From Cyanidioschyzon merolae (taxonomy: Eukaryota): a stretch of 64,000 nucleotides of DNA. The stretch lies in NCBI GenBank assembly GCA_000091205.1, contig AP006484.2. One strand, 5' to 3'. Positions 12,831-61,549 of the stretch are shown here, in pieces. The first letter of the stretch is position 1, and each line of letters starts with the position of its first letter. The translations under genes and the position numbers were made by a program. The notes under the pieces are model-generated. The model was not told the origin of the DNA. It saw only the letters and a program-made list of their open reading frames with translations, and made no database searches.

Positions 12831-13125
12831 GCGCTCCAGTTGCCTTGAACTACAAAGATCTTAATCTTGAAGAATCTCTGATTTGGGCATGATACATGTA
12901 CGGAAGGCAGAATAGTCGAGGCCTGCACACATCTATGTCAGTGAAACAAGAACGCTTTACGAGCATGGAGGGAAAATATATATTCACTCACAGAGGCCTT
13001 CGAATCTTCTTCAACCGGCGGCCTGCTTTCTGTTTCAGCTTCTCCTGACTCACTTCGAGCTTCAGAGGCTGCCCCATAAGATTGGATCGCGTAAGCTCAT
13101 CGGGTCTCGTCTCCAGCACCGCATA

Positions 13126-13560
13126 TCATCTGAGCCTGATGGCGGCGTTGAAGTCACAATTCATGAACTCCATGCGTCCGCTGCAGCCGGTTGAACGCCT
13201 CAATGCATGGATTGATAGAACACGTGCCCTCTGCGTCACCATAGTCCCGCCACCTGCTTCTTCTACTGCTTCGTCAGCTGCTCTTCCTCGCATGATCGTC
13301 CGTGAGAAGAGCATGTTTTTGTTTATCTTCCAGAAGCTGGCGGTGATGGACCTCCAGGATTCCCAACTTTCACGTCCGTACCTTTCCCTTAGATATTGTA
13401 CTCTGAAAATAAACGCAGTTTGAATGCGTCTGCTATAAACGGAGAAAAAGCATTTGATGACATGCACTTGACTGTGGAACGCAATGGAGGTGAAAGGCTC
13501 TAAAAACGGTTCGTGAAAAATCGCAATGGCACCAACGGAGCGCTCGATCCTGTGTCCCAA
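13126..13560 (-). pseudogene. C-terminal fragment of a TnpB/Fanzor-like (RuvC-III) nuclease gene
   Basis: The minus-strand translation ends ...RMEFMNCDFNAAIRLR. That is the D-x-D-x-NAA-x-N-I RuvC-III motif seen in the larger copies at 34409-34612, 45051-45719 and 46744-47097. It is only a short fragment. Confidence 0.45.
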
Positions 13561-20700: not shown

Positions 20701-22320
20701 ATGCTGCAATCAATGAGTTTGGAAGCAAGGGTTCTTGAGACGCGGAAGAAGGGCGCGTCCAAACACGAGGTGTCCGTAGCTCGCGGGCGAAGCAACGCTG
20801 CTGCCGAAGCGACGCTGCAAACTGCACAGCATCCGTCACAACATGCCGTCCTGGCATACCAGTGCTTCGTGGCCCCGATGTCACCGCTGCGTCTGCAAAG
20901 AAACTCGGAGAATAGGACGCGGCGACTTTGCTCTGTAAGAACGAAGCGACGCTTCGGAAACACAGCGCAAAAGACACAGCGCCTCGAGATTCGTTCGACG
21001 GTGCCCAAGTCAGAGCAACCTGCTGTTCAATACAAAATAGTGGACGCTCTCATCGAGTCCAAAGTCGCAGAGCTTTATCCGCACTTTGCACAAGTTGATC
21101 GCCGAACCGCCTACCATCTAGGACGGATACTGCAGACATTCCGTGCACATCGCCTTGGTACACACCATTTTGCGAGCATCAACGGATACGGACACGGCGA
21201 CATAGGTCGAGACACTCTGGATGCCATCTATGCGGACCTCTTCGGTACAGAGGCGGCACTGGTGCGCGCACAGTTCTTCTCCGGGACGCATGCAATAGCC
21301 TCGTGTCTGTTCGGGGTCCTGCGCCCCGGAGATGAGATGCTTTCGATAAGCGGGAAACCCTACGATACCCTCGAAGAGGTCGTTGGCCTGCGACCCAGTG
21401 CCAATGGGGCTGGAGGCTCCCTTCGCGATTTCGGAATCGAATACCGAGAGCTGGAGCTCAGTGCATCCCACGGGAACATCCTCGATTGGGATGCGCTCGC
21501 CCAAGGAACCTGCTTCTCACCGAAAACCCGCCTGTGCTTGATCCAACGCTCCCGCGGATACGCCTGGCGACCGTCGATTTCCGTCAAGGATATCGTTCGT
21601 GCTGCTCGAATCATCAAGAGCCACCGGCCAGACATGATTGTTTTCGTCGATAATTGCTATGGCGAGTTTGTTGAGGAGTTCGAACCTACGAATCTTAGCG
21701 ACGACATTGACCTTATGGCAGGATCGCTGATCAAGAACCCTGGCGGGACCCTTGCGCTCGGCGGCGGTTACGTAGTGGGGCGTGCAGCGCTGGTCGCTGC
21801 CGCAGCTAACCGCCTCGCAGCACCGGGCGTCCACGGGGGCGCCACCTACAACCTTAATCGAGTCAACTATCAGGGCTTATTTTTGGCGCCTCAGATGGTA
21901 GGAGAGGCGCTCAAAGGGGCAATGTTAGTCGCTACTACGCTTCTTGAGCTCGGGTTTGAGGTATCGCCCATGCCGCCTCAATTCGGAGGAGAAGCAGCCC
22001 ATCGCACAGATATCATTCAGGCCGTTCGACTCGGCGCGCCCGAGCTGATTGTTGCCTTTGCTCGAGCGGTGCAGAAATGGTCCGCTGTAAGTGCATATGT
22101 CCAGCCTACAGCCGGTGCGACACCAGGTTATGAAGATCAGGTGATTTTCGCCGACGGCACCTTTATGGAAGGAAGTACGTTGGAGCTTAGCGCAGATGGG
22201 CCACTTCGTGAACCCTATGTTGTGTACGCACAAGGTGGCACGCACTGGACGCATTGGATTCATGTCTTGCGTGAGTTCGGCGCAGTACTAGATCAACAGC
22301 GCCACGTAAAACTAGGGTAA
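20701..22320 (+). CDS. PLP-dependent methionine gamma-lyase-like protein (PF06838, YnbB / 'aluminium resistance protein' family) with an ~140-aa N-terminal extension
   Basis: INGYGHGDIGRDTLDAIYADLFGTEAALVRAQFFSGTHAIASCLFGVLRPGDEMLSISGKPYDTLEEVVGL, IQRSRGYAWRPSISV, VFVDNCYGEFVEEFEP, AGSLIKNPGGTLA, YQGLFLAPQMVGEALKGA, PGYEDQVIFADGTFMEGSTLELSADGPLREPYVVYAQGG are near-diagnostic for this family, which is mostly bacterial. Confidence 0.82.
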   Translation: MLQSMSLEARVLETRKKGASKHEVSVARGRSNAAAEATLQTAQHPSQHAVLAYQCFVAPMSPLRLQRNSENRTRRLCSVRTKRRFGNTAQKTQRLEIRSTVPKSEQPAVQYKIVDALIESKVAELYPHFAQVDRRTAYHLGRILQTFRAHRLGTHHFASINGYGHGDIGRDTLDAIYADLFGTEAALVRAQFFSGTHAIASCLFGVLRPGDEMLSISGKPYDTLEEVVGLRPSANGAGGSLRDFGIEYRELELSASHGNILDWDALAQGTCFSPKTRLCLIQRSRGYAWRPSISVKDIVRAARIIKSHRPDMIVFVDNCYGEFVEEFEPTNLSDDIDLMAGSLIKNPGGTLALGGGYVVGRAALVAAAANRLAAPGVHGGATYNLNRVNYQGLFLAPQMVGEALKGAMLVATTLLELGFEVSPMPPQFGGEAAHRTDIIQAVRLGAPELIVAFARAVQKWSAVSAYVQPTAGATPGYEDQVIFADGTFMEGSTLELSADGPLREPYVVYAQGGTHWTHWIHVLREFGAVLDQQRHVKLG

Positions 22321-24501: not shown

Positions 24502-27268
24502 ACTGGCGTTGAGCTGCTCCTTGTAACAGCCTATTCTCTCTGGTTGAAATGATCCCGCGTCTTTTCTGATGCCATATGCCATTTTGATGCCCAAGCATCA
24601 AAATACAAGCAGCTAGTGACCAGGACAAGATTTATCGATATAACGTTGTCTACCTTTACGAGAACGAAACTGGGTCGTTCCTCCTCTGCTTGTGCTCCGG
24701 TGCAAACGGGAAGACGCGCTACAGTCAGTAGACATGCTCGCAACGAAAGTGACGAAAAGGCACTGGAGGGTGAGTAAATTCATATGTGCACTGGAAAAAG
24801 AGAGCTCCTTTACCGCCGTCCATCCATTCCGTCTAAATCCCGAGATGCAAACCAGATAAAGAACATCGTGAACACATCCATGCACTCCGCCAAGCAACAG
24901 GGAAAAAGAACCCATCACGTAGCGAAAAGAAAGATCTTCCAGAATAGAGCACGAAAAGAAAAGGAAGGAGAAATTAACGAAGTGGGAAGATCAGCCTGTA
25001 ACCATTGTCGAATCCTCACACTGAAACACATCAACGGTCAGAATCATCCAAAGAGTAACATACAGGACGCTTTCATAGAAAATGCAGCTTCATGTTCGAG
25101 CATATTTCGTCTCGCTGTTTCCGCTTTGACGTACCATGTCAAGAAACTGTTTGTGCGTGTTCCATGCAACGGGCTGGCAACTGTCCACCTCAGCCTGGAA
25201 TCGTTGGATCTACCCGTCGCGTGATACCGCGAATGCTACTCGGGACAGAGGACACATGGCGGTATGACCGTTCGATCAGAGGTTTGGAAGCAAGCTCCCT
25301 TGGACCTCGATGATGCGTCGCTGCGCCACCTGGTCCATCAAAACTTTTACAGTGAAGGATTCAAAAAAACTGTCAAACCAAGCTCAAAAGCCATATCCAG
25401 GATGATGTCGAACGCTTCTCGAGGCGCAGCCTTTGGGCTTTGTATAAATTGTACCCTCTCGTTACTGTTCCAGAAAAGTAGGGACAGATAGAAAGGATTC
25501 TTTGGCATGTCGACGGAGGCAAATGACGAGTTGGTTGCTGTTGAACTTGAGTTCGTGGAGAGGACGGGCGAATGCCGCTACAGGCGCGAGAGTCGCTCAA
25601 GTCATGCTAGCTCATCGCATGTCGACCGCCTCCGGACCGATCGATGTCTTTACTAAAAGACAGTTGGAGCATAAGCGCTGCCTTGCGTGCCTCTGGCGCA
25701 ACGACGTTTTCCTGAACACAGCGCTCCAGAGCAAAACAGATCCCTTCACCGAATCCGAGTGCCCGAGCCTCCTCGAGCGCCTTTCCGTTGTGACTACAAA
25801 TATCCCATCATGGCCAACTATATTACCGTAGGAGCTTCAGTACTGCATGGCCGTTTCCGTGATTTACGTCTAATCTGGGCGGGCAATCAGGAAACTTTCG
25901 AAAGACTTTGTAAAGAGGGCTAGCTGTGTGCGTCCGGGGTTCCTCGTATTCGGGGGAGAAGTGGAGCGCATTACACAGGAACCAGGGAACCCGACGACAC
26001 ATCATTGAGCATGAACTTCGTGAAACTTGCGCATGAATCAACAGATGAGGTTCATTTTCAGCAGTTCAAAGTACATGAAAAGAAAGAATTTTCTATGACC
26101 ATGGATCCCAGGTTGTCGAGCACCATGGCCGACGCCGTCCCTCTGAACCAAGAGGTGAGACGCGAAGACCCGAATGGGAACCAGGTGAAGCTGCTCAACT
26201 TTCCCAGGGCTTGGCATTATCGGGAATTGGGTATGGTGGACGCCCGGAAGCATGCCAACAACCGGAATGGCGTCGCGGTCCATCTGGACGCTGTGCGCGT
26301 CATATCGAGCTGAGCGCGGTGCTCTGTACGCTTCATTTAGGGCATACATGGGCGTCCAAATGGATGCTGCAGACGCTTTTTGGCGGGAGTCCTTGAGACC
26401 GCGCTTGAGGCACCAATTTTTTCGCATGTACGGAGGCGAGAAAGGTGCATCCGCGAACTTGTTCAATGACGTGGAGAAGGAAATGACCAATACGTCGTGA
26501 AGTTTTGTGGTAGTCTAAGGCACTTGACTCTCTGTAGAGCGCAACTGCCGCACTCCTACTCGCTTGGAAAGAGAGTGCGACGCCGACGGGAACCGATTCC
26601 GTACGACTCCCATCGAAGCAATTCGGACGACACACACACACACATCACGAGCACTGGTGCTCGCCGGAGCACATTGAAAAGAATAGGATGAAAAGGGTTG
26701 AAGACACGAAATGCTTTGCGGTAAGCTAAGCGAACGTCAGACGACAACGCAGTTCAAGATGAGAGGCTTCGTATGGTGCGATTTCACAAACAACAATGCG
26801 CCCAAGCATATCTGGTCAGATAACTGAACGTTTTTGTCAGAATACAGAAATTTGGCGGGCTTCCGGAGCGTCAAGCAGTTTCGAGTTGGGCGAAGTTTCC
26901 AGAGAATCGCTCAGTAACCAGTGTGAACATTTTGCTGACAAGTTGTAGATTTGCAATGACCCGTAACAATGGCGTGGCGAATGGACAGTGGGTTTTCGCC
27001 AAGAGCTGGGTACTGGGATTGCGTGGGTCAGCCATCCAGCAAATCTGGAGCACCGCGCATGTCCATCGGGATAGATTTAATCTTGTCATCTGGTAGAAGG
27101 TAATCGAGATCCGTGATTCGATGTTACTGAGTATGCATTGCTCCACGGTCACTCTGTGGCACACCGGAAAGGAGCTTGCCGGCGTCGACGAACTCTCAGA
27201 GGAAATGCAGTTCCAGTTGTCTTTCGACGAAATTTCATAATACATATGGCATTGTCTCGGCGATGGAG

Positions 27269-27674
27269 TCATTGAAACAAACACGTTCTACGAAAATGAA
27301 AGGCAAATAAACATACCCACTTATCGGCGTCTCTCCGGCTTATTTTTGACCAGCTGACTGCTATCGGCTTCAGTTTCTCCATGCACGCTGCGAGCACCAG
27401 AGCCTGTCCCACAAGGTTTGCTCGCATCAGGTCCCTAGGTCTCGTCTTGAGCAGCCCAGATCGTCTGATGTTGATGTCGGCGTTGGAGTCTGGGTTCACG
27501 CACTCCATGCGTTTCCTTGCGCTGGTTGAGCACAGCAATGGAAGGATTCATCGGACTCGCACCCCCTGCGCGAATACACTCTCATCATCGCCTCGTCGGG
27601 CAAACACCTTTACTCACCTGGCATCCCGCTTCTTAGTTTGTTTTGTCACTTGCTCTTCTTCGCTCGATCGTTGA
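27269..27674 (-). pseudogene. C-terminal fragment of a TnpB/Fanzor-like nuclease (RuvC-III block)
   Basis: The minus ORF 27269-27538 reads MECVNPDSNADINIRRSGLLKTRPRDLMRANLVGQ. Compare copy D, EYVNRDFNAAINIRRCAVIERRPPELARENFVGQP. It lies directly downstream of, and on the same strand as, the transposase relic at 28098-28700. Confidence 0.5.
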
Positions 27675-30610: not shown

Positions 30611-31546
30611 TCATGACGTACCCAAATCATGGATACGGATGGGGTCAAAATAAGGGCGTTGCTGTGCAAGAGCAGCGCCTAAGTTTTGCCACCATTCCGG
30701 GAGAAGCGTCCGAGCGATCATACGGAACCATGGAGTCAAAGTGTCCGCCTGGTGCTGTAACAATTTGTAGATATCTTCCCGTGTGCATGCTTTCACTGCG
30801 GCGACCTCGTTGGCATTCGGCTCTACGCGCAATCCAGTGCCCGTACTGCCGTCCAGCACGACTTTCTTGCGTGCAAAGAGGATATAGTCGACTTCGTGCT
30901 CGCCCCAAGCGGTATTTGTACGACAAACAGCCCTATATCGGATGCGTGTCAAGTATGAAAGGTCGTCAGGATGGAGACCGGTCAGGCCAAGTTCTTGTTG
31001 AAGCTTTCTCAACGCAGCACGTTTCACGCCAAGCACCGGGTCCGAGACGTTGCACTCGTCCGGGTTGAAGAGAGGGTGCGAGCAGCAGGTGTTCGCCCAC
31101 AGCAGAGGAAACGTGACCTTTGTTGCCGCTCGCTGCTGCAGAATCAAGCGGTTGTCTTCGTCGAAGAGAAAAACCGAGAAAGCTCTGTGCAAAGGTAGGT
31201 TATTCGAGACGAGATGGGCGTCCGCTTTGGAACAGCGTCCGATGACCCGGTCTTCAGCGTCTGTGAGGATGAGCTCTTCCGCAAGCAGAGCCCGTTGTAC
31301 TTCATCTATTCCAGATATCTGAGCTTCCATTCCCAAATAGGATCCTGTGGAGCTCTTTGGATCGAAAAAAGTGCCCCAGAGTCTGCGGAACACCAGACCC
31401 CGACGATACATATGCACATTGCGCGCTAGAAGGTGCGAATGGATTTGCTCCAGCGCTCGACTTGGCAGCGATGGACAGCGATCCATGGCGGGCGTCAGCG
31501 CTGGCGTGCATATTTTTTTCGATGACAAAATGTTTCCATGGACCAT
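30611..31546 (-). CDS. IDI1: isopentenyl-diphosphate delta-isomerase, type I (Nudix fold)
   Basis: [41 protein letters not shown] and [15 protein letters not shown] plus [19 protein letters not shown] are collinear with human IDI1 ([74 protein letters not shown]). The core is preceded by an N-terminal extension of roughly 70 aa. Confidence 0.92.
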   Translation of the reverse strand: [311 protein letters not shown]

Positions 31547-32722
31547 GGATTCCAGATTGTGGGATGGATGGATGGATCTTGGCTATCGGCAAAGCGTCTT
31601 CCATAATGCAGCCTATCTCCAAATTCCATTATTTATGCTTCCTATAGGGTCTGCTGGTCGTTTTGTATATTCTATCGTGTGGCAAGTGCCTGCCTTGCTG
31701 CACCCGCAATAGCGCTAATACCGCTGGTGCAGATGCGTCACGGGGACAGATCGGCTTTGCCATACGACTGAGAGCGTCGCCCCGAGGCATGGAGCACCCA
31801 ACTCGAGTTCGGCTTTCGTTATCATTCTGGGCGCCTGCAAGCTCCGCAGCTAGACCTACTGCCTGCGACAGCGCGAAGCGATGTATTAGGAGTCCATCAG
31901 GATCGGCGCGATACCCAGATGCAGACTACCTGCTCCTAGTCCCGGAGTATCCTGCGTTGCGGAAGAGTCGCTCAGATCTCGCTAATGCACCTACCATTAG
32001 ATAGAGCCTGAAGCACTAGCCTGGCGGACTCGTTCGGCTCGCGGGACCTCTCGCCAGGAAGGTAAACTTTCGAAGATACGGAAACCTTTTCCCGTTTTTA
32101 AGGTTTACCATAAAGAAAGAAAAAAATTGTTATCTCGTTGCTGGTTATTGATTAGTCTCTGCACTTTGCTCTATGTAGCGTGGTCGATACGCGCACCTCC
32201 ATATCTGGCAGGCATGAGAAACAACGCGCTTTTCGCCTTTGATTGTGCATACGATCCTGACAGTTCGCCGGCTTGGTGACCTGACGGGCAAGTTGTATTT
32301 GCGTTGAAATAGTAGCAAATCATGTGTTTCATATTAATTGTTTTTCAACACTCAAGTGAGTGTATTCCAGTGATATTTCGCACGTCATAGAAGACGCGTT
32401 CAACGGGCGTTCTTTTTCAAGCAAAAAGGAAAATTATGGACATGGAATTCGGGCATCCGGGGGAGCGGGGGGCGGTGTCGCCTGCTGCGGAAAATACATA
32501 TGGAAAACAGTGCCGAGCAGTGCGGAACAGGAAAAGGCAGAGAAGCAGAAGAAGGGGGCCAGACGCCAAAGGCTGCAAGAAAGACGACGGAGCGACGAGA
32601 TAGTAGTGAAGGCCTCTCTTCATAGACATATCAAGGATCTGCTCAAGAAAAAAATGCAAGAGACCATCAGGAACCGCATCGAATCTTAATCCGTGAGTAT
32701 TATTAAGACTTTTTAAGGACTG

Positions 32723-34612
32723 ATGCATTTGGTGAAGGAGGTGTATCGCGACGTGACGAACAGCACAACAGCCGAGGTTCCCGAAGAATTTTCGAACAAG
32801 ACCATCATCTGCCACCTGTTGCTTGGCGCCGGGGAAAAGTCGAGGAGAAGCGAGCGATTACATGCCCTCCACGACAAATACACCAAGTACCGCTCCAGCG
32901 GTAATCTATACAGGGGAGACTTGCGTATTTATGAATACGGAGCGATGAAGTACCTCACGAATCTGAAGCACCATATGATCGTGAACCTCGAATGTTTCAT
33001 GACAAGCGACGTGTTTGCACAATGCCCGGGCCTCTCTCCTGAGGAAAGAGATGGGCCATCATCGACAGCATCACAAACGATTGTCGCGATGAACAGGAGA
33101 TTGAATTTGTCGACGGGCAGACATCACGCAGGAGAAAGAATGAAGCTTCTGTAATGCATTCGGTTGTACAAGAGAACCGTGCGGTTCTGGGGCTGGCGAA
33201 TCCAGCGGAAAATGTATTAGATGTAAAAAAGATAAAAATAGATTTTATCCCCTCATCTTGCGCTATTTCGCGTTTTTGGACCTAGAACCCGAACACAAAG
33301 CGGAGATGGAGCTGGTGGTGAGAAAAAATGAAGAGTCGCAGAAACGGAGGGCTTTCCTACTGAAGAAGCGCTTCGATGTTGTTGCGATATTCAAGATCAA
33401 GTGGCTCTTTGTGACAATCGACTCCAGCATCCTTCATGCCGTCATGAAGGAGACCAGTCGAGAGTTCGACGTGAGCAAATAGGAAATCACGGGTGAAAAC
33501 CGGGAGACTCATTGGAAGAAATTTTTCGATTTCAAACGTCTCAACAGGAGCAAGAAAAAGGTACTCTCGGGGATGATCGAAAGCGATGGGGTATCGATAT
33601 CTGTACACTATAGGCGCTTGAGGGCGGATCGTCCTGTTCCATCTTTGTTGTCGTCCTCGGCGAAGCATGAATATAAGAAGGATATAGATCCTGCGACGCA
33701 CGAGGTGCATGAGAACGACTGTGTCGTCGGAATCGACTGAGGGAACACGAATATTATCACCATCGCTGCATCTAGTTGTGGGGAAAATGATATCAACGAC
33801 AACTTACGGCGGAAAGGCGTGCAACTTTTAAATTACTAGAGAGCGAGATACTACCGGGAATCTGGGATAATCAATGCGAGGAAAAAAGTGAGACATGGAA
33901 TGCATGAGTGAAAGAGCACCTAGAAGCGATCAGCAAGGTGACGAGCAGCGGAGCGGACTCGCAAGCTTTTTGGGGATTCGTGAAAGTTCGCGCTGCTCAT
34001 TGGGAGGTGCTATGGAAAGAATATACAAAGCCCCGGTTGGCTTATCCACAGATGAAGCTGCACTGTGGGAAGCAGCGTGCATTCGACAACTTCTTCGATG
34101 AATTGAGCGCCCTCAAAGAGGAAAAGAGTCAGAGGTTCATAGTAGCTTATCGAGCAGGACGCTGGGTATTCGGAAAAGGGTTTTCACCCGCTCCACCCGC
34201 ATGAATGTACAAGGAGTGCGCATACCGTATTGCCACGACACCAATGGAAGAATTCCGAACGTCATACACACACCACGAGTCGGGGTGTGCATTCCAGCGG
34301 GTCGAGATGGAAAAGTGTCAGAGGAGCCCTGCATCCATAGAAAAGTACGGAGCGCTGACGGAAGAGCAAATGGAATAGAGGGCACGATTTAGAGGACTTG
34401 ATGCTTGCGTGAGTACAACCAACGAAAAGAATCAAATGGAGTTTGTGAACCAAGACTTTAATGCCGCTATCAATATAAGGAGATGCGCAGTGCCGGAGAA
34501 CAGACCTGCAGAGCTGATGAGAGAAAATCTTTGTGGGGTAGCCTCTGGGGGTAGAGTTGCACAAGGAGAAGTTGAAACCAGTAGTAGGGGGCTGTCAAAA
34601 AAAGACCGGTAG
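32723..34612 (+). pseudogene. TnpB/Fanzor-like (OMEGA-type RuvC + zinc-finger nuclease) gene, copy A, broken by frameshifts and an in-frame stop; the 5' boundary is uncertain and may reach ~32360
   Basis: The ORF fragments 33258-33482, 33895-34204, 34201-34392 and 34409-34612 are collinear with copies C and D. The RuvC-I-like block DCVVGID*GNTNIITIAA (~33720-33770) has a TGA inside GIDxG. The central block is MKEHLEAISKVTSSGADSQAFW...GKQRAFDNFFDELSALKEEKSQRFIVAY. The RuvC-III block is NQDFNAAINIRRCAVPENRPAELMRENLCG. A basic NLS-like segment KQKKGARRQRLQERRR lies upstream (32360-32689). Confidence 0.55.
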
Positions 34613-35556
34613 GCGTCTGCACATCAGTCGGTAGAAATATATAGTCTATGGCAGTCCGTATGCCACTCGCCACCACATTGCACCGGTTATGCAGCGTATG
34701 CCAATTGAAAGCCATTCGCTTCATATATGTATGCATCGGCACGTATGTATCAAATTGCTATTATTACGTGAAACTTCTGTTGAAGCTGATACGGATTTGC
34801 CAGCGACGAGTGCGCACTGTACGCAGTCTTCATGGGAACTCTGCGTCAATGCTTTGAGCTTCAGAGACATGCAATGCGCTAAGCGTCAGGGGTCTCGCAA
34901 GTACACGATCGAGGAGGTATCCGAGTGTCCACGCTGCATCGCAAGAACGCGATGCGCGACAATGCGGTTCATCTTGCGCTGAAGCACACATAAAAAATGT
35001 TTTCGGAACCAGAACGCGCAAAAGCGCGATCGGTGACCGACCGAAGGTCGTTTCTTACGCATCGAGTAGAGACCAAGACGCTGGATCATAAATTGGACCG
35101 TGGAGGAAAACGCCTCAGTCGAAGATTGACCTACTTCGAATGTCGCACCCGAAATCTGTTCTCCGAGCAGGGGAGCGATGCCTACTCAAAGAGTCTATGG
35201 CGCAGAGCAACGCTGTTTCAACCGAAACAGCGCTGCAGGCAGCGTTGTTGAAAACTGAGGCCGGCAAGGGCGAAGCATTCGAAGAGACACGCATCGCTGT
35301 GCAGCTCAGTGAATCTTTACAGTGACGGGAATCGGAAACTCAGGTTTGCCTGCACGTGCCTCGTTCGGCGACTTGCACTTTGTTCACCGGGAAATGCCCA
35401 TCCAGGCGTGCGCGTCGACCACAGAAAAAGGCGCTTTCCAGACGGCTGCAAAGTCCATGCAGACTCTGTGGGCTTGAACTGCGCGCAACTTCGGGGCTGT
35501 GTAATCTCGGGAGAGTCGGCGATGAAGCGCTCATCAATCGCGCGGTCCAATCGCCG

Positions 35557-44100: not shown

Positions 44101-45069
44101 CCTGAGAAACAGCACCAGGCTTGTCGGTACGTCCGCCTCCAACAGAAGCTCGACTGGAAAACCTTCCAACAGCTTCAACAGAAGCTGAAGCGATGCCCTA
44201 AATGCCGGTCCGGGGTCCGTGAATTCGCAGCGTAACATATGGAGCGCCACAAGAACGATACGGCTGCCTTCCTGCACAAGACGCTCACCGATCGCATCAG
44301 CAGTCAGCTGAACAGTTGCCGCGCCTGCTGACTGACGTATTCCCGTCTCTTCAGCCACTGCGGATAAGATTTCTTCAATTATCGTAGAGAAAATCTCCAT
44401 AGATTCAGCGCTTTCCAGAGGACTTCCGAGCAAATGATCCAGTACCCGAGAACCATAGCTGCTCTCCCAATACTGCACCACAATTCGAGCGAGAAACTGG
44501 GCGACCTTTCTCCGCTCTCCACAAGAAAATGCTCTCTTTCCAGCTGCTAGTGTGCCATGGCAGTGATTCCATAACTCAACTGCAAAAGCGCAGAGCGTCT
44601 GACACATATCCAGGGTGTCCGTACGCGCGCTTAGAGCCTCAGCCTGCGAACGCTCGATAAGGTCGACCAACAGCTGAAACCCATACTGTACAGCGGCCGT
44701 TTCCACTACTCTAGCAAAGTTCGAGTCTGCATCTGGAACAGCAGATCGTGTCAAACTTTCATAGCATAGATTAGCTGCTATGAGGTCCCGTCCCAGCGCG
44801 AAAATCGTGTCTGCGGAGAAAAACTTTGACACATTACAGAGGAACGTATGGGCTTGTCTGCGGCTCTCTCCGGTGCTTTTTCCCCAGTGCAGCACTGCCA
44901 GAGCTGAAACAACTTCCGCCGTAAGATCAGACGCCATTTCCGTTGCAAATCCAGAAATAGTCCCCTTGGCGCTCAGAAGCCACGCAGCCACCACCGCTGT
45001 TCTAAAGTGGAACGACGTCGCGCGCGTACAGTAGTTGCGAGAAGCCCGCCCTAGACCGGACGTCTCCAA
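41110..45069 (-). CDS. large HEAT/ARM-repeat protein, karyopherin-beta (importin/exportin)-like; the start is probably at the internal Met near 44937
   Basis: The ORF is 1319 aa and helical-repeat throughout. An importin-beta N-terminal-like segment (DLTAEVVSALAVLHWGKSTGESRRQAHTFLCNVSKFFSADTIFALGRDLI) resembles the exportin IBN_N pattern. The first ~44 codons of the ORF track entry read through the 3' end of the Fanzor-like copy C, so translation more plausibly starts at MASDLTAEVV. Confidence 0.6.
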   Translation of the reverse strand: METSGLGRASRNYCTRATSFHFRTAVVAAWLLSAKGTISGFATEMASDLTAEVVSALAVLHWGKSTGESRRQAHTFLCNVSKFFSADTIFALGRDLIAANLCYESLTRSAVPDADSNFARVVETAAVQYGFQLLVDLIERSQAEALSARTDTLDMCQTLCAFAVELWNHCHGTLAAGKRAFSCGERRKVAQFLARIVVQYWESSYGSRVLDHLLGSPLESAESMEIFSTIIEEILSAVAEETGIRQSAGAATVQLTADAIGERLVQEGSRIVLVALHMLRCEFTDPGPAFRASLQLLLKLLEGFPVELLLEADVPTSLVLFLRRRFEQMFGDRLVACADYDWLAIEALGCWITRAQPMLPKQRDVLGSLLETLISFVICFDEAYTGDVGLLIDAPIRWEERLSLLQAVIELTFLAFESTLTHLQERPAIWSSFILLLGRLVSHPWASIAELALAFCCRDQVLKTVLTAQCVVVLLDAAWMRCCMDTSLPAYLFTGKDIVENSVLDANDPRWRLMSFVLSRNAEQPKLNSSLRSRTRDFLRKICQNWRDACLDWVVTRAVDRMDCHRNRRSTGPVMEQFCFREEPAHLHSFWRGLLSVRNGQYPSDAESALFIEMLLDETREVMFFTMSEVLAPLLPSLGRGSGVSKPPGVSKTSSRGASSEVGGEENARLTQVLQLGERVEFVLSMVDTLDLDQDANKIHMILHVFFGCAPLLARIEGAQIRTIQAALRVLERIQQLPCTEHARWSAMGLHRREKWFDALCRGILALLLRSEGSETVSGAQVLLPSIQQALREAPMPFPARCSLLKCVPVIVCSLDSPEKSIPVLNALLEETLGIWKTMALQHEVLRDPERFLIAFLAPSADADTNRTCLLQLLTLFEQMLSVSMKHSIWKQTVMFGELLPTTLPQMVAALNHLFSLRPDGRGDISVLAPSRIEIAQWYRLVMEWMLRAGLLPEAIADSRQHRKELLKTRRSFIHISARGLLLFQRMLALDPDPDALKFYREICLRGIPQVDIEYLALIVRHVMKTLLQCEAQAHQGSDIWETDVTEIWLPLLRATAERIGQLAYEEVSDEESSTMDEVLHGAPHANEASSANEAFDQAAVALVELAVAMLKLESCSRRVQLFNWARDFLRKCLDWHFESASRKAFAFLRKHLSFWIHPAEGYLAIDTESLLQLENSIARALTDERWYSRPEDVRKVHAAVNDELYRRGFSPACFTTSELPSKHPNASMFPGENGGERMRALGNVAVRRSFNHGASTQLNEAAMAFPSSKMASQKHRPLSVRLLQSWKKRTQLYTMDLEDESINGDDDTALEGVAVLFG

Positions 45070-46072
45070 CTGATGTGCAGACGCCTCCCAGTGCTTTTGA
45101 AGCGGCCACCCACTACTGCTTCCAACTGTTTCTCATATAGTTCAACTTTTAGAGGTTGTCCAACAAAGTTCTCTTGTGTAAGCTCTGGAGGTCTTCTCTC
45201 CAGCACCGCACAATTCCTTATATTGGTTGCGGCGTTAAAATCTCGATCCACGAGCTCCATCCGTTTCTTGCCATCACTCCCTGTACTTACCAATGCAAGT
45301 AGCCCATGAACTTTCGCTCTCCTTTCCATTTGCCCCTCCGTCAGCGGTCCATACTTTTCTACATCCTCAGGGCTCCTCTGGCACTTTTCTATCTCCACCC
45401 TCAGGAGTGTACAGCCCAGCTCGTGGTGTGTGTAGGACGTTCGAAACTCATCTACAGGTATCGCAACAAAACGTCTTGCGCACTCATTGCACGTTCTTGT
45501 TGACGGAACTGATGTACACCCTGTTTGGGTCTTCCATTGCCCTACTCCGTACGCTACTACGAGTCTCTGACTTTCATCCTCCTTAAGGGCACTCAACTGA
45601 TTGAAAAAGTTGGCAAATGCCCGCTGCTTCCCACAGTACAGAATCATACGCAGACGAATCCATCGATTCCTTGTATACTCCTCCCACAGCGCATCACAAT
45701 GCGCAATGTGAACTTCCATAAACTCCCGAAAAAAGCTTTAAAGTCCGCTCCTCGGCTCGTCACCTCGCTCATAGCTTCCAGGTGCTCTTTCACTCCTGCA
45801 TTCCACATCTCAATTTTCTTCCTCGCATTCATGATTTCCGATTCTCGATAGTATCTTGCTCTCGAGAATCTCAACAGGCGCATGTCTTTCTGACGTAAGT
45901 TGCAGTTCGTACCATCTTCCGCGCGCGTGGGTACTGCGATGGTTATGATATATGTGTTCCCGGGCTCTGCACCAACGACAAAGTCGTTATCTGGCACCTC
46001 CTGCGTCGCGGGACCCGCCTCCTTCTCATGTTCATGACTCGCCGCACCAACGACGAAATCGTTCTTCTGCAC
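45051..46072 (-). pseudogene. TnpB/Fanzor-like nuclease gene, copy C (N-terminally truncated; the C-terminal 222 aa are still one ORF)
   Basis: The minus ORF 45051-45719 has a zinc-finger/RuvC-III tail (TCNECARRFVAIPVDEFRTSYTHHELGCTL...MELVDRDFNAATNIRNCAVLERRPPELTQENFVGQP). The upstream ORF 45644-46072 has a duplicated RuvC-I-like block (DFVVGAEPGNTYIITIAV) in which the Asp of GIDxG reads Glu. Confidence 0.6.
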
Positions 46073-46167
46073 TTTCTGCGTCGTAGGATCCGCCTCCTTC
46101 TCATCTACACGCTTCGTCGCGGGCGAAGCCGAATGCAGACCAGAAGGCGAGCCCTACCGCGCAGGAG

Positions 46168-47097
46168 GTGCAGAAGAACGATTTCGTCGTTGATGCGAAC
46201 CCCGGGAACACGAATATCATACCCATCGCAGCACCCAAGTATAGGGAAGATGCTAACACCGGCAACTTACGTCAGAAAGACATGCGTTTGGTGAAGCCCT
46301 CAAGGGCTAGATATTACCGAGAATCGGGAATCATGAATGCATGGAAGAAAATTGAGACGTGAAACGCAGGAATGAAAGAGCACCTAGAAGCTATGAGCGA
46401 GAAGACGCGCCGAGGAGCGGACTTTCGGGCTTTTCTGAAATTCATGGAAGTTTGTGTTGCTCATTGGAAGGCGCTGTGGGAAGAATATACAAAGCCCCGG
46501 TGGGCCCGTCTGCGTATGAACTCGTACAGTGGGAAGCAGCATGCATTCGCGAACTTTTTCAATCAGTTTAGCGCTCTCAAGGAGAATGAAAGTCAGAGGC
46601 TCGTAGTAGCATACGAAGCATAGAGCTCGGCGTCGAAAAAAGGGTGTAGGCGATCTCCAACGACAAGAACGTACAAAGAGTGCGCATGCCGTTTCGTCAC
46701 GATACCGATAGATGAGTTCCGAGCGTCGTATACAAACCACAAATTGGGGTGCACGCTTCAGAGGGTCGAGATGGCAAAGTGCCAGCGGAGCCCTGAGGAT
46801 ATGAAAAAGTACAGAGGGCCGACGGAAGAGCAAATGGAAAGGAGGGCGAGACTTCGAGGATGGCTTGCACTAGTGAGTTCAACTACCAATGGCGAGAAAC
46901 GCATGGAGTATGTGAACCGAGATTTTAATGCCGCTATCAATATAAGGAGATGTGCGGTGATAGAAAGAAGACCACCAGAGTTGGCACGAGAGAATTTCGT
47001 GGGGCAACCTTTCAAAGTGGGACTATATGAGAAACAGTTTGAACCAGTTGTGAGTGAGCGGTACAAAAAGACTGGGAGGCGTCTGCTCATCAATTAG
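46168..47097 (+). pseudogene. TnpB/Fanzor-like nuclease gene, copy D (head-to-head with copy C; frameshifted)
   Basis: 46168-46362 has RuvC-I-like FVVDANPGNTNIIPIAA, where the Asp position reads Asn. 46372-46623 has MKEHLEAMSEKTRRGADFRAF...GKQHAFANFFNQFSALKENESQRLVVAYEA. 46744-47097 has FVTIPIDEFRASYTNHKLGCTLQRVEMAKCQRSPED...MEYVNRDFNAAINIRRCAVIERRPPELARENFVGQP. Confidence 0.6.
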
Positions 47098-47144
47098 ATA
47101 TAGCTTGTTCCGGTCGGGTTTCCCGCCGCTACTGTGTACTGCCG

Positions 47145-50100
47145 GTGACGTTCGACTTTCGAACAGCGTTCGTTGTCGTGGGTGGTTTTCGTGAGTGCAA
47201 AATGGCTTTTTGCGATTTGAGTGTCTTCACGACGGAACTGTCGTGCGCTACAGGTAATGCACGTCTTCGCAGTCGCCAGGCAACCCTGTTCACCTTGAAG
47301 GGTCGCGTTCACAGGACTGCGTCGGATCTTCGCAGGACTCACAAAATCAGTCGTTTGGTGAGCATGAACGTTAGCGAAACACTCACAAGCACCAAAGCTG
47401 TTCAAAATTTGGAGCCATTAGGCACCAAAGAGAGCGTCCTGGATGCTGCAGTCTCGGCGAAAAAAGTCCAAGCTCCGGGCACCGCAGCACTTTACTTTGC
47501 TTACGGCAGCAATATGTGCCCCCGAGTACTGGGACCCGACACTGATCTTCTCTATTTGTTGCGACGAATATCGTCGTCGTCCTGGGAAACCGGAGAGCCG
47601 GCCGTACTGGAAGGGTTCAGCCTTGAGTTCAGCTGCCCTGGCGTGGAAGCCCTCGGAGAACCAGCATTCGCCAACATTGTGCCTGCCGTCGAGGCCAATT
47701 CTGGTGCACCCCGTGAGCAGTATGATACAGAGGTTCACGGTGTTTTGTTTCGATTGACACAAGCAGAATTAGACCGCATCCTATTATCGGAAGGGGTCGG
47801 GTTAGGGCGCCAGCGCGTCGTCAACGTCACAGTACGCACCTACCGCAACGTACTCTATGAAAATGTCAAGACAGTCGCGTATGTATCATGGGAGATACGG
47901 AATCCACAAAAGCCCTCGTCACGTTACCTCGAGCTCATCCTGGAAGGCGCTAATTACTTTCACTTGGATATTCGGTATGTTCGAACGCTTCTGCGCAAGG
48001 CCTCCGGTGAGTACACCTCTGCCGCGCTCCCAGCCACGAATAATATTCAGAGCGACATGGTGAAAATGCTTCAGGACATACAGGTTCCCCAACAGATTGT
48101 GGCGTTTTATCAAGAAATGCACCACCTCAAGGGAACGGTTCGATTCATCATGCCTCCGATGCTTGACGAGAGCTCACGGGCGACTAGGCCGCTGTTGCTG
48201 TTCTTCCCCGGCCTAGATGGCACTGGCATCAGTATTGCTACACAGCTTAGAATGTTTCAGTCAAAATATGATGTTCGCATTTTGGTGATTCCTCGGGACA
48301 ACCGAATGCCGCTGGATGAATTAGGGAACACAATTCTGGATTGTTTGGAGTGCCTCTGGAAACAAAAGACAGAGGTACTGATGTCGAAAGAGGTATCGCA
48401 CGAGCCTCAGGTTGCACCGGATGTTCTCGCTGAGAGCATGGGCTGCTTATTGTGGTTTGAGTGTGTAAGAGCTTTTCGCAGACGAGCGAATCTCAAATGC
48501 GGCGCTGTTGACCCCTGCGAAAGCCCTACTCGCGCTCTGGCAAGGCACGTCATGCTGGTGAACCCAGCAACTAGTTTCAGCAAATCAGCTCTCGCTCCAG
48601 TTTGGGAAAATATCTCTGCATTACCCGACCCCGTTTACCACGTTGCTCCGTACATATTTAGCCCTATTCTGATCGATCTGCTCCAGCTTTTGGCAGAGCC
48701 CAGTATGGCGTTTCAGTCACTCCAGCGAATGGGTGTCCTCCGCGAAATCTTGCCCAAGGAGACGCTCCGTCATCGGGTGCGACTCATTCGCGACTTTCGC
48801 TATGCAGCCGATGACTTTGCGGCTGCAGCAGAGTACGGTGCTGAGCAATACACAATCGCAGTTGCAGCGAATGATGCTCTGCTGCCCTCTCTAGCAGAAT
48901 CAGAGAGTCTCCTTGGAAAGCTTACGCTGCCTTTTCTCGAAATTCAAAAAACGGGGGTCCGGAGGATGAGTAGCCTTCCTGCTACTGTTGTTCGGTACGT
49001 TGCAACTCAAGGTGGGCACGCGCTGCTCCAGTCGGGGAGCTTCGATGCTTACCAGCAGCTCATGGTTAAGGCTGAACGCGCACATGATCGCATTCGAAGA
49101 GGTCTTTTGGAACGAATACCCAAAGCTGCGAAAGATTCACATACCCGTTCGTCTCCGAGCCAGCATACAACGGACGTCACCGACAAAACAATGGGCTCAG
49201 GTTTCGTAACTGAAACCCTCGACAACGACCAAACACTTGTTGCCAGGTCGCCAACAAATGGACAGCTGGATCGATATGCGATACGGCAGAGGACTGGCTC
49301 GTCCGTGCGGGATTCAACCACGGGCTCACGGTTTTTCCCGAGGAACAAGTTCGCGCTCGGCGAGACGCGGTGGCAGCTTCAACGACAGAGGCGTCTGCTT
49401 TCGCCAATTTTTCTGGATTTCGACAAGGTACCCTTATCATCATCAACGCGTCCGGTTCTGTTTGTTGGAAATCATACCCGTTTGGGGCTCATCGATTTAC
49501 CATTTCTGATTGACCAAGTCTGGAAGAGCCGGGGTGTATTCGTGCGGGGTCTGGCACATCCCATTATATTCGCGATGCAGCAGCGGGGTCAGTCTCAATG
49601 GGAAAGTGCGGGAGATCGGCAGCGCACGCGAGCCCGCGACTTTGCGACGAATCTCGCTGCACTAGGCGCTGTATCTGTATCACCGCGAACGGTTTACAGT
49701 CTCCTTCGGAACGGCGACTCTTTATTGCTTTTCCCAGGCGGCGCCCGTGAAGCATATAAGAGACGTGGCGAAAATAATCAAATTTTTTGGCCGAAGGATG
49801 AAGAGTTTGTGAGACTTTGTGCACGCCTCGATGCTGTTATTGTGCCTTTTGCCTCTTTTGGCCCTGATGACAGCTTCGACGTCGTGGCGGACGGAGAAGA
49901 ACTCTTGAACGTACCTTTTCTGGGCGGCTTTATTCGCAATCAGTTTGAAAGAATGGGTGTTCGCGCTGATATTGTGCGTGCTTGGCGCTCGCCGCTTTCC
50001 GAGCAGCCCTCTGATGCGGCGATCGCAGACCTGTTGATCCCGCTGCTGCGACCGCGGCCGCCACTGCGACTCTACTTCCAGTTTTTCGATCCGGTATATC

Positions 50101-59570: not shown

Positions 59571-59879
59571 GCCAAGGTACATTCCGTCTTTCTTCCGCAA
59601 GTCCTTCTCCCCCGGGAAGGTCCTCACGTAAGAGTAGAAAGAAGTGCGTTCATTGTAAAGAAACAAAAACCCGAGGAAAAGTATTGAGAAGCAAGTCGGG
59701 GATCCCGGAGGCTTGGTGTCGCCGGATTTCCACAAAAAAAAATGTGAAAATCCTCTCCTCGCCGACCATCGAGCGAAGAAGAGCGAGTGACGAAGAGGAA
59801 GAAGAAATGTATTGGGGGATATGCAAGAAAAGATGTTTGTCCAACGGTACGATGACGAGACTGTAATGGCACAGAGGGC

Positions 59880-60070
59880 ACGAGTTCTATGAATCCTTGC
59901 ATCGATGAGTTCCACCGGAGGCAATAAATACATAGAGCTCTTGAATCGGAACTTCAGTGCTGCCATCAACATTAGGAGATGTGCGATCCTGAAGACGAGG
60001 CTCAAAGAGCTGATGCGATCCAACACCATGGGATAGCCTCTCAGGTTCGAATTGTGCCAGGATAAACTAA
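59880..60070 (+). pseudogene. C-terminal fragment of a TnpB/Fanzor-like nuclease (RuvC-III block), immediately downstream of the Tc1-like relic on the same strand
   Basis: The plus-strand translation ...YIELLNRNFSAAINIRRCAILKTRLKELMRSN has the same DxNAAxNIRRCA block as the other copies. The ORF 59556-60164 listed on the minus strand is its antisense. Confidence 0.45.
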
Positions 60071-61549
60071 AAGCAATAGCGGGCGGCCGGTCGAGAAAGG
60101 CTGGCAGGTGTCTGTGAATGGACACGTATTTACCATCCACGTTCGTGAGACATTTTTGTTTCACTGAAATTCATGTTTTTTGCACACACAAGCACACGCT
60201 GCGTCATTCGATAGAAAATTATCGGAAAGCGATGTTGTCCAAAACGGAATAAATGACGGGAGCAAAAACCAGACCCGAGAACGAGTCGAGAAACTGCGAT
60301 TCGTTAATGCTCCCCTCGTGTTAAGCGCTGATGCACCCTTCACCGTTAGCGATCACCTCGACGCCGCAATTCCCAACTCAAGACCAATCTCGATGCAAAC
60401 AGAACAGGAGGGAGCCTCTGCAAGCATATCCCTTTAGAGTTATTATGCAGCTTTTGAGTGCCGTTTGGTGCATAGCCATGAATGGACGCGTATTTTTCTG
60501 ACGAATTGAATCAATCATTTAACGTGACAAGTTTCGAGAACCTCCGGCTTGAGCTCGTAAACAAGCCGCCAATAAACTTAGTCGAGTATGCATTCTCGCC
60601 AATCCAGCGGCGCGAAATGCTGCCCCCACATATTGTCTTGAAGCACCAAGATCGAAAACTTGAAGCATGGGTGATTTGAATAGGCGACACGTAAGGAGTG
60701 GAGAGGACCATATACTAATACACTAGAATCGGGTACTTATTCCCATTATTTTACGAAATCTTGTCCGATTGCGTCGAAATCCACCTTGACTCCGGTGCAG
60801 TAACAAATTCCAGCAGCAAAGCATCAAACGAGCCACCGCGAAAAGACGTCTGAGAATGCTCGAATTCCTTTGATTTCGTAAGGCGTAATTGCTGCACCTC
60901 GAATTCCAAGTGTATATAGTTCTATAAGATAAATAGGAAAGAACTGATCCGCTGGAACAACGTGAACAACTCAGTGTTCCGTTTTTTTCTGACACAGGTG
61001 TTGTCCCCTCTGAGGAGATCATGGGAGCCCGCCCCTTCTCTGCCACGAAACAGCACGATCGCGGTGTCACGCATGAATCGCCAAATGGCGCGCATCTTCG
61101 CCTTGCTGAAGCGTGCATGGTTCAGGTGCGCTCTCTGGGTCTGCATCCCAGCAACTTGAGGGACTTCTACGGCGATAGAGCGTCTCATGGATGCTTGTGC
61201 AAGACACAAGCGCTTAAGGAGACTCGATAATGTCCAGTCAGGTAGTTTTGGACCGGATGAGAGCCTTAGAGGAGTGCGTGAAACGCGCGAGTCTGTGTCC
61301 ACTGGACAGAGGCCTTTGCACTTTAAACTGCCTCGAAATCGGGAAGCTCGAAGTCTCATTATCGCGCAGAATCGTCTTGAAAGCTCCTTGGGTTCAGTGC
61401 AGGTTTCTCGCAAGGACTTGAGCTCAGCTTCTGCGCTTCAGCACGGCCGCTACACGCTTCGGCGGAATCGCGGCCGCGTGCGGTACGCTGACCAGCAGTC
61501 CTCTTCAGAGGAGGTCGCGAGCTCTTCAAATGAGTCTTCCCGAGTGGAA

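Follow-up and report, generated by a model that had tools for sequence, protein, structure and literature searches.

The closest described systems are the Fanzor1 nucleases, among them SpuFz1 of Spizellomyces punctatus, PpFz1 of Parasitella parasitica and GtFz1 of Guillardia theta. [quoted passage not shown] In all solved Fz1 omega-RNAs, stem-loop 1 (SL1) is 7 bp long; those of SpuFz1 and PpFz1 have a single stem-loop 2 (SL2) (PMC11423790). We noted that the 5' leaders of these two RNAs, UUUUCC and UUAUCC, directly precede SL1. Small RNAs of Chlamydomonas have been mapped to the 3' UTR of Fanzor (PMC10530073).

We analysed a stretch of 64,000 nucleotides of Cyanidioschyzon merolae DNA (contig AP006484.2 of assembly GCA_000091205.1), which we call the window. 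The host is a thermo-acidophilic red alga of hot springs, and the genomes of cyanidiophycean red algae are very small and streamlined. A preliminary description of the window had reported three Fanzor-like copies (A, C and D) and had proposed that a motif at their 3' ends is a conserved non-coding terminus, possibly an omega-RNA scaffold. We find that the motif consists of codons: it encodes K-K-T-G-R-R-L-H-V/I-S, the conserved tail at the C-terminus of a TnpB-like nuclease of the Fanzor1 type. The omega-RNA candidate that we discuss below is a separate module at the right end of the element.

The assignment of the copies to the relatives of Fanzor1 was correct, and the family is an ordinary further Fanzor1 member. 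When copy C and the 759-aa family consensus were compared directly with Pfam and the PDB, nothing significant was found, and Pfam PF07282 and the TnpB models remained below threshold against the family (E = 0.5-0.9), so that membership had to be established with a profile of distant relatives. This profile (A5) comprises 38 relatives gathered with the family profile at E <= 1e-31; the link to Fanzor1 is thus transitive, and it runs through matches to the solved structures of PpFz1 (9cf0, E = 1e-16), SpuFz1 (8gkh, E = 2.6e-9) and GtFz1 (9cer, E = 2.9e-5). One relative reached E = 0.002 against PF07282, which is below the cut-off. An AlphaFold2 prediction from the shallow family alignment had a pLDDT of 32.6.

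The catalytic triad is invariant in the profile (D421 in GxDPG, E592 in VDEFRT and D658 in NRDxNAAxNI). It is found in the family consensus as GADPGNTN, VDEFRTSY and NRDFNAAINI, with the Glu relocated, and is partly mutated in the window: copy C reads GAEPGNT, and copy A has stops and frameshifts. The protein has a basic, NLS-like region at its N-terminus, and related proteins are typically 600-700 aa long. None of the window copies has an intact nuclease ORF, and the exact copy C protein is on record in none of the public assemblies. Since 80 related loci also yielded no intact full-length ORF (the longest, of 722 aa, lacks both ends), the Fanzor system here may be extinct.

The elements are about 3.2 kb long, with mostly decayed ORFs, and the copies are young, about 10-12% from the consensus. 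The coordinates in the window are collected in Table 1. Copy A belongs to a sister lineage, and its 3' end matches that of locus L081 as far as ...TCGCTTC before the two diverge. The ORF span of copy C includes the rearranged catalytic Glu (VDEFRTS), RuvC-III (VDRDFNAATNI, ~45219-45251) and the C-terminal tail. Copies C and D meet within a 75-nt tandem repeat, between positions 46121 and 46122, and L001/L002 carry the same locus with 96-97% identity. Scanning the window for Rfam families and tRNAs returned no match.

Table 1. Features of the Fanzor1 elements in the window
Feature	Position	Strand	Remarks
Copy A, whole element, sister lineage	31514..34722	+	left end TTTTTTCGATGACAAAATGTTTCC at 31514
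Copy A, 5' non-coding segment		+	~690 nt, then decayed ORF of ~750 codons
Copy A, 3' non-coding end	34637-34722	+	stops at ...CATTCGCTTC
Motif, copy A	34598..34644	+	family frame reads QKKTGRRLHISR, then stop; frame-shifted pseudogene
Motif, copy D	47066..47103	+	encodes YKKTGRRLLIN, then stop; premature stop 47095-47097
Motif, copy C	45061..45098	-	encodes FKSTGRRLHISWRR, within intact 222-aa ORF
Copy C ORF, 222 aa	45051..45719	-	stop codon 45051-45053
Right-end module, copy C	44986..45054	-	stop codon, SL1, linker, degraded terminal hairpin; cmsearch 64.2 bits, E=9e-15
Right-end module, copy D, degraded	47110..47178	+	cmsearch 45.8 bits, E=5e-10
Copies C and D, one head-to-head 5'-truncated dimer	44986..47178	.	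right end at each outer edge
C-terminal remnant, third lineage (L084-like)	59839..60114	+	degenerate; tail GGRSRKAGRCL and stop kept, DNA diverged
C-terminal remnant, third lineage (L084-like)	12982..13296	-	degenerate; tail AGRRLKKIRRPL, then stop

The three strings quoted for the motif are present verbatim in copies A, D and C, although that of copy C lies about 25 nt away from the place given for it (45035-45075). A search of the whole window with the 18-mer core GGAGGCGTCTGCACATCA, allowing at most one mismatch, found the sites in these three copies only. That the motif is non-coding is contradicted by an in-frame tblastn alignment, which reads ...VVGG(R/C)(F/Q)K(S/K)TGRRLHIS, and by the 222-aa ORF of copy C, which reads through the motif to a stop five codons on. 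The encoded peptide, ...KKTGRRLH(I/V)S, lies five to six codons 5' of the stop. The non-coding appearance of the motif is due in copy A to a frameshift near 34530 (from frame 2 to 3) and in copy D to the early stop; frame-shifted pseudogenes can disguise coding sequence as non-coding. Furthermore, ...VVGGRSKKTGRRLHVSWRRFV followed by a stop is the protein end in 193 database homologues, and [VI]G[KR]x[IL][KR] ends 38 diverse full-length relatives that share about 27-45% identity with one another. In diverged lineages the tail peptide has been retained while the DNA has drifted.

Among the three window copies there is indeed a local peak of conservation: the pairwise identity of the 30-nt motif is 87%, compared with 64-74% in the preceding 200 nt of the ORF, and the RuvC-III block alone equals it. 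A special nucleotide conservation of the motif is not seen in 49 distinct copies, where its mean pairwise identity is 0.81 versus 0.77-0.89 along the ORF. The diversity at codon positions 1, 2 and 3 is 0.20, 0.18 and 0.245 in the motif, so its third positions are as variable as those in the rest of the ORF (0.13, 0.12 and 0.263). The codon-position bias of the ORF shows past selection on the protein.

The motif is common to copies A, C and D because these are paralogues within a single repeat family whose copies are mostly dead, and the extra conservation between lineages is due to a protein motif, [V/I]-G-[K/R]-x-[I/L]-[K/R], which ends the proteins of the whole clade. It had been argued that a sequence conserved while the ORFs decay would have a function as RNA or transposon end. 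This argument fails, since paralogous transposon copies are alike mainly through recent common ancestry and not through selection; likeness among transposon copies is no proof of function. The preliminary description had also held that an alignment devoid of compensatory base changes would speak against its proposal, and for the motif this is what we see: 78.0% of the cells are paired, as against 77.6% in shuffles. An exhaustive covariation scan over column pairs found no stacked covarying pairs. Judged by reading frame, third positions, covariation and helix, we were not able to find an omega-RNA constraint on the motif itself beyond the coding constraint.

A right end at the 3' end of the ORF, on the other hand, is real. 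It starts at about the last codons and the stop, immediately 3' of the motif. The motif itself is not the terminus of the element, since the homology between copies runs about 60-70 nt beyond the stop codon. Identity falls to background at +97 to +107 from the motif start, and the flanks downstream of this boundary are unique, with the exception of same-locus duplicates. The module that begins at the last codons and the stop is 66-70 nt long (about 76 nt with its leader). It is composed of the leader UUUUGUCUAG (with GUCUA), an SL1 of 6-8 bp (GGCGGG-UUU-CUCGCC), the linker ACUACUGUA and an SL2 of up to 19 bp (CACCGUUGGCGUCGUUCGA-CUU-UCGAACGGCGUUGAUGGUG), and the 3' arm of SL2 ends exactly at the limit of homology between copies.

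The fold z-scores of the module lie between -2.0 and -5.3 in all ten of the ten copies from outside the window. In the window they are -0.3 for copy D and +1.1 for copy C, the terminal hairpin of which has decayed. The hairpin is retained across variants with different arm sequences. At 30 of 34 loci the sense strand folds better than the antisense strand, by 6.2 kcal/mol, although the copies are related, so that the loci do not count as independent; in control segments from the ORF the two strands did not differ in this way. A covariance model of the module gave 87 matches in 492 kb of loci and 2 in the window, all of them directly 3' of Fanzor ORFs. Statistically supported covariation of the module within the family was not found (79.1% paired, versus 79.2% in shuffles). 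In several variants the outer part of SL2 is imperfect, and when applied to mixed hairpin variants RNAalifold recovered two short stems alone, because the variants pair in different registers. In the sister lineages (copy A/L081, L082 and L084) the 3' non-coding sequence differs, and just SL1 and the GUCUA/ACAGUACAC boxes can be recognised. Within the element, divergence is greatest in the 3' non-coding part, where the diversity is 0.36 as compared with 0.26 at third codon positions.

What stands of the earlier omega-RNA idea is that a two-stem module at the right end resembles published scaffolds; the idea had been attached to the wrong bases and based on the wrong argument. We consider the module a better omega-RNA candidate than the motif because of its sense-biased fold, its exclusive adjacency to Fanzor ORFs and its likeness to the SpuFz1 and PpFz1 scaffolds. 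Whether it is an omega-RNA scaffold appears to us, from these comparisons, an evenly balanced question. If it is, the module would be transcribed together with the 3' end of the Fanzor mRNA or from it, the putative omega-RNA starting near ...GUUUUGUCUAG. The module would then act as the scaffold, and the guide would be supplied by the 15-20 nt of flanking DNA just past it, as in SpuFz1 and PpFz1. Probably, the DNA of the module doubles as a cis-acting transposon end.

The alternative that survives best is that the module acts purely at the level of DNA, that is, as a subterminal palindrome for a transposase supplied in trans and without a role as guide RNA, much as the hairpins at the right end of IS200/IS605 and at the 3' end of Helitrons. 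We regard this as rather unlikely. The 3' arm of the hairpin is the element boundary, and the ends are asymmetric. The elements start with a T-run followed by CGATGAC, the left end carries just short palindromes (AAACGTTT and CCATGG), and terminal inverted repeats were not found when the right-end sequence was sought at the left end in both orientations. Although the family exists in many copies (at least 422 relatives in a few metagenomes), none of the genes called within 10 kb of L085 and L086, two of its loci, has a transposase domain. Dimers in head-to-head arrangement, bearing a right end on either side, also turn up repeatedly. They might suggest that two right ends suffice for mobility, a reading weakened by L030 and L039, which have the left flank in common and may not be independent loci.

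On the other side, 5 of the 19 pairs in SL2 are G.U in the sense strand, so that the antisense strand or a duplex cruciform would be much weaker. Helitrons start with 5'-TC, end with 3'-CTRR, have a hairpin that stops 10-12 nt short of the 3' end, and insert into AT. The elements studied here lack the TC and CTRR termini (their 3' ends are ...GATGGTG or ...GTTTGTT, and at the 5' end are the T-run and CGATGAC), they have the hairpin at the boundary itself, and no Y1/HUH or RepHel gene was seen; we therefore rejected a Helitron. An element of the IS200/IS605 type was rejected too: the right hairpin is present, while no TnpA lies within 10 kb at L085/L086, the left end has the short palindromes only, and no clear transposon-adjacent motif (TAM) was found in eight independent 5' flanks (CAT, CAT, CTG, CTG, GTG, TGG, GAC and GCG). 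Neither a TAM nor a target-site duplication is definable, because the left boundary lies in a T-run and just eight flanks are independent. Moreover, a role as DNA is compatible with one as RNA; in IS200/IS605, one right end serves both.

Clearly less probable is the reading that the motif does after all belong to an omega-RNA scaffold or right end, either non-coding or in dual use, with an RNA that starts inside the ORF. The tail codons would then also form the 5' portion of an extended omega-RNA, in which a long-range helix between CAGUAGUGG (the AVVGG codons) and CCACUACUG (3' non-coding) closes a domain with an internal motif stem (GGCGUCU:AGACGUU) and SL1. The consensus of the 135-nt region from -31 to +104 folds in exactly this way (z = -5.4), and few nucleotide stretches are as well conserved between lineages as the motif block. 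Published omega-RNAs may overlap the 3' end of the ORF, and 5' extensions raised the activity of SpuFz1 (PMC10432273). However, none of the proposed helices has covariation support, and the terminal hairpin by itself probably accounts for much of the z-score. The long-range helix loses weight in that the sister lineage does not maintain it: L081 has 6 of 9 pairs, and copy A is worse. The CGUCU/AGACG complementarity falls between Arg-Leu and Arg-Arg codons, the third codon positions of the motif vary as freely as elsewhere, and the protein motif is kept in relatives too diverged for a common DNA sequence. We thus give the dual use of the tail codons little credence. If it were true, the same bases would encode the basic tail of the nuclease and its own guide scaffold, the two co-evolving, in a Fanzor1 of a thermo-acidophilic red alga, and the right-end module may still function somewhere in the population.

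That the module is a mere 3' UTR with a 3'-end processing signal of the Fanzor mRNA, kept by recent descent, would agree with the youth of the copies, the high divergence of the 3' non-coding part and the missing covariation, but it is improbable given a hairpin potential that survives changes of its arms, strong fold z-scores, a hairpin end that is exactly the end of the mobile unit, and an architecture like that of the solved Fz1 omega-RNAs.

We are highly confident about the coding motif and the right-end boundary, and consider it likely that the whole explanation holds, namely a coding tail, paralogous decayed copies and a separate right-end module as candidate omega-RNA. The outcome is a large Fanzor1 family defined in cyanidiophycean red algae, with element boundaries at the level of single bases and a concrete candidate, about 76 nt long, for a guide-RNA scaffold. 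An active copy, if one exists, would represent an RNA-guided nuclease of a thermo-acidophilic eukaryote, with potential interest for genome editing.

How does this family compare with the known systems? With bacterial TnpB in the IS200-IS605 and IS607 OMEGA systems it shares a nuclease gene that reaches the right end, a scaffold (here a candidate) that overlaps or abuts the 3' end of the ORF, and asymmetric ends with subterminal hairpins and without terminal inverted repeats. It differs from them in its eukaryotic host, in the absence of TnpA (Y1 or serine recombinase) within 10 kb at the two loci, in the sub-threshold scores of the Pfam TnpB models and in that the left flank has no conserved transposon-adjacent motif. 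As in the Helitron and Helitron2 elements with Fanzor1c (Chlamydomonas CrFNuc), a Fanzor gene lies in a non-autonomous element with a palindromic hairpin near its 3' end; unlike in Helitrons, the hairpin extends to the very end, and an asymmetric terminal inverted repeat was not found.

The closest likeness is to Fanzor1 itself. Unlike SpuFz1 and PpFz1, which end at RPxxLxR, the proteins of this family add a C-terminal tail of about 40 aa that bears the motif. Further differences from known Fanzor1 are a 25-aa in-frame tandem repeat before RuvC-I, an unusually long SL2 and the damage in all examined copies. The stretch after VDEFRTS (HHELGCTLQRVEMEKCQRSPE in the consensus), where Fanzor1 has a zinc-finger TNB/NUC domain (CxxC...CxxC) between RuvC-II and RuvC-III, may differ as well, clear CxxC cysteine pairs not being evident in it. 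On the other hand, the family agrees with SpuFz1, PpFz1 and GtFz1 in its profile-matched protein, in GxDPG, the relocated Glu in VDEFRT(S/T) and NRDxNAAxNI, in the basic, NLS-like N-terminus, and in the position of the gene at the 3' end of a mobile element. Finally, as in SpuFz1 and PpFz1, about 70-76 nt at the stop comprise a U-rich leader, SL1, a linker and one SL2, followed by the flank, a likeness that is architectural and was not scored.

The short motif common to the Fanzor-like copies A, C and D had been called a conserved non-coding 3' terminus in the preliminary description. It is in fact coding and specifies a conserved protein tail. With the copy C ORF as tblastn query, all three motifs align in frame as ...VVGG(R/C)xK(K/S)TGRRL(H/L)I(S/N), and in copy C an intact ORF of 222 aa (45051-45719, - strand) reads through the motif to a stop five codons further on (...HISWRRPV*). 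The copy A motif looks non-coding solely because of a frameshift near 34530, and that of copy D because of a premature TAG at 47095-47097. The consensus C-terminus is ...VVGGRSKKTGRRLHVSWRRFV* in 193 database homologues, all of them metagenome proteins. All three quoted motif strings are present in the window (see table), that of copy C about 25 nt away from where it had been placed. The 18-mer core GGAGGCGTCTGCACATCA, with at most one mismatch, has only these three sites in the window. Among the three copies the 30-nt motif block is 87% identical pairwise, compared with 64-74% for the 200 nt before it, and the RuvC-III block alone is as invariant; the local conservation peak is therefore real.

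Table. Features of the Fanzor-like copies, in window coordinates unless a locus from the metagenome scan (L numbers) is named
Feature	Position	Strand	Sequence or remark
Motif, copy A	34598-34644	+	quoted string found
Motif, copy D	47066-47103	+	quoted string found
Motif, copy C	45061-45098	-	quoted string found
More diverged remnant	59839-60114	+	peptide GGRSRKAGRCL* kept, DNA drifted
More diverged remnant	12982-13296	-	peptide AGRRLKKIRRPL* kept, DNA drifted
Much more diverged Fanzor-like remnants	25978-26812, 27332-27559, 51142-51642	+, -, -	22-44% aa identity to consensus
Copy A, whole element	31514-34722		left end TTTTTTCGATGACAAAATGTTTCC
75-nt tandem repeat	45973-46132, about 46122-46300	-, +	consensus positions 1640-1874
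Right-end module, copy C	44986-45054	-	covariance model match
Right-end module, copy D	47110-47178	+	covariance model match
Upstream partial copy with right-end module	L040 7-113, L048 76-182, L023 91-240
Leader			UUUUGUCUAG, includes stop codon
SL1			GGCGGG-UUU-CUCGCC, 6-8 bp
Linker			ACUACUGUA(CAC), conserved
SL2, terminal hairpin			CACCGTTGGCGTCGTTCGA-CTT-TCGAACGGCGTTGATGGTG, 19 bp in well-preserved copies

Direct Pfam and PDB searches with the Fanzor-like copies gave nothing significant. An exhaustive profile search yielded 1350 clusters of relatives, mostly of 600-700 aa, and a profile of 38 relatives matches the solved Fanzor1 proteins of Parasitella parasitica (PpFz1, E=1e-16), Spizellomyces punctatus (SpuFz1, E=2.6e-9) and Guillardia theta (E=2.9e-5). 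Together with the residues invariant in the relatives' alignment, D (GxDPG), E (VDEFRT) and D (NRDxNAAxNI), these matches identify the window copies as Fanzor1 relatives. Fanzors in Rhodophyta have been reported at survey level (PMC10530073). Weak or faint matches to PF26935 (DUF8286) fall on the middle part of the ORF (L082/L083 3566-3949, L084 1087-1590). In the wide family, proteins terminate after RPxxLxR with ...[V/I]G[K/R]x[I/L][K/R][K/R/C]*, and the motif shared by copies A, C and D (T-G-R-R-L-H-V/I) is the C-terminal motif common to the whole family. In contrast, SpuFz1 and PpFz1 stop right after RPxxFSR without this tail, which is therefore specific to the present Fanzor1 clade.

Is there any constraint on the motif beyond the protein? 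The metagenome scan gave 422 relatives, with 80 loci kept. Pairwise identity among 49 distinct copies averages 0.81 at the motif and 0.77-0.89 across the final 330 nt of the ORF. By codon position, the ORF has diversities of 0.13/0.12/0.26, a mark of past purifying selection on the protein; in the motif codons they are 0.20/0.18/0.25, and synonymous sites there show no suppression. The motif sits in a stem of the consensus MFE structure. This structure contains no covariation (78.0% of cells paired vs 77.6% in shuffles), and no stacked covarying pairs emerged when every pair of columns was scanned. With neither covariation nor suppressed synonymous sites, we see no RNA-level signal of the kind suggested for the motif.

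Nor is the motif the terminus of the element, since homology runs well past it and past the stop codon (+35 from motif start) to about +97..+107, after which identity falls to background (0.25-0.3). The downstream flanks are unique, save where different assemblies contain duplicates of one locus. Leader, SL1, linker and SL2 make up the non-coding tail, and the SL2 3' arm finishes at the homology boundary. SL2 includes five G.U pairs; in a second variant, AACGT(T/C)TTTC-TTTT-GAAAG(G/A)CGTT, with outer arms of its own, the hairpin is kept in a different register. This right-end module folds with z-scores of -2.0 to -5.3 in 10 of 10 non-window copies, whereas the window modules are decayed (copy C z=+1.1, copy D z=-0.3). 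In 30 of 34 loci the sense strand folds better than the antisense, by 6.2 kcal/mol; these loci are related copies and not independent observations. ORF control segments show no strand bias in folding. Within the window, a covariance model of the module matches only copies C and D, and in 492 kb of related loci its hits all lie directly 3' of Fanzor ORFs; none is a solo copy. No covariation was found in the module within the family, as expected for young copies decaying neutrally.

In the window these right ends are separated by only 22-48 nt from the first ATG (44935-44937, -; 47201-47203, +) of long host ORFs downstream on the same strand (1319 aa and 1059 aa). The distance to the next gene in L085 (11264) is ~120 nt from the module and 187 nt from the stop codon. 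A guide derived from the flank of such a right end would correspond to a host 5' UTR; the element itself may lie within promoter regions or provide them. The genes nearby are eukaryotic (DNA polymerase delta subunit B, HECT/RCC1 ligase, kinases), and related contigs carry plastid-type nuclear genes (sigma-70 factor, lycopene cyclase). A conserved Met-gamma-lyase-family ORF of the window (20701-22320, +) shares 99% identity with a JGI metagenome protein, 77% with Cyanidiococcus yangmingshanensis and 72% with Cyanidium caldarium. On this evidence the host belongs to the cyanidiophycean red algae.

Upstream flanks are unique at eight loci. A 5' non-coding segment of ~690 nt precedes the consensus ORF of 759 aa, which has a basic region at its N terminus and, just N-terminal of RuvC-I, an in-frame 75-nt (25-aa) tandem repeat KDEEKKEADPATQEVEDNDLVVDAA of variable copy number; none of the 80 loci has an intact full-length ORF. 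Since the right-end sequence is absent from the left end, the element lacks terminal inverted repeats. Two loci are free of transposase genes within 10 kb, and flank comparison defined no clear transposon-adjacent motif or target duplication. The defining features of Helitron and of IS200/IS605 are lacking. The 5' non-coding segment (~630 nt; window 31514-32147) is inverted in place in L051 572-1194 and L085 7981-8603, and likewise in L075 794-968 over the ~180 nt that align; in these copies the left terminus adjoins the core. The window at about 16800-16880 (...ATCGGCATCCGGGAAAGTGTTCACCATGCAGCC...CATTCGCTTC) resembles this segment, below the BLAST threshold.

Copies C and D form one head-to-head, 5'-truncated dimer (44986-47178; junction 46121|46122), both of whose outer edges are right ends. 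L016/L017/L039, L030/L047, L032 and L077 also contain dimers joined internally at this same point (consensus 1818|1616). L030 and L039 share the left flank (97.8%) but not the right, so the count of dimer loci need not equal that of independent insertions. In one subfamily, the element is preceded, ~560-750 nt upstream, by a partial ORF 3' end and right-end module belonging to another copy, a layout suggestive of tandem or nested elements. At least seven Fanzor-like copies or fragments, of several lineages, are present in the 64-kb window.

The proposed 3' omega-RNA scaffold and right end can be retained, as candidate roles, for the two-hairpin module a few bases downstream, not for the motif itself, which is coding and not terminal. 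A longer RNA including the motif is possible: a 135-nt consensus folds with z=-5.4, and in it the helix CAGUAGUGG:CCACUACUG encloses the motif, but this helix is not maintained in the sister lineage (copy A/L081). We consider the two-hairpin module the best candidate for both omega-RNA scaffold and transposon end. The SpuFz1 scaffold is 75 nt long and comprises two stems and a linker (PMC10432273). The three solved Fanzor1 omega-RNAs each have an SL1 of 7 bp, and in those of SpuFz1 and PpFz1 one SL2 only precedes the guide (PMC11423790). The latter two begin with GUUUUCC-GAGCCGG... and UUAUCC-ACCAAAG...; in the sister lineage, UAUUGUCUAC precedes a 7-bp SL1 (CGGGCGG-UUUG-CCGCUCG). Our module, GUUUUGUCUAG-GGCGGG..., shares the layout of the SpuFz1 and PpFz1 omega-RNAs and is of similar length (~76 nt), a resemblance that is architectural and unscored, and by which the putative RNA would probably begin at the last codons, immediately 3' of the motif.
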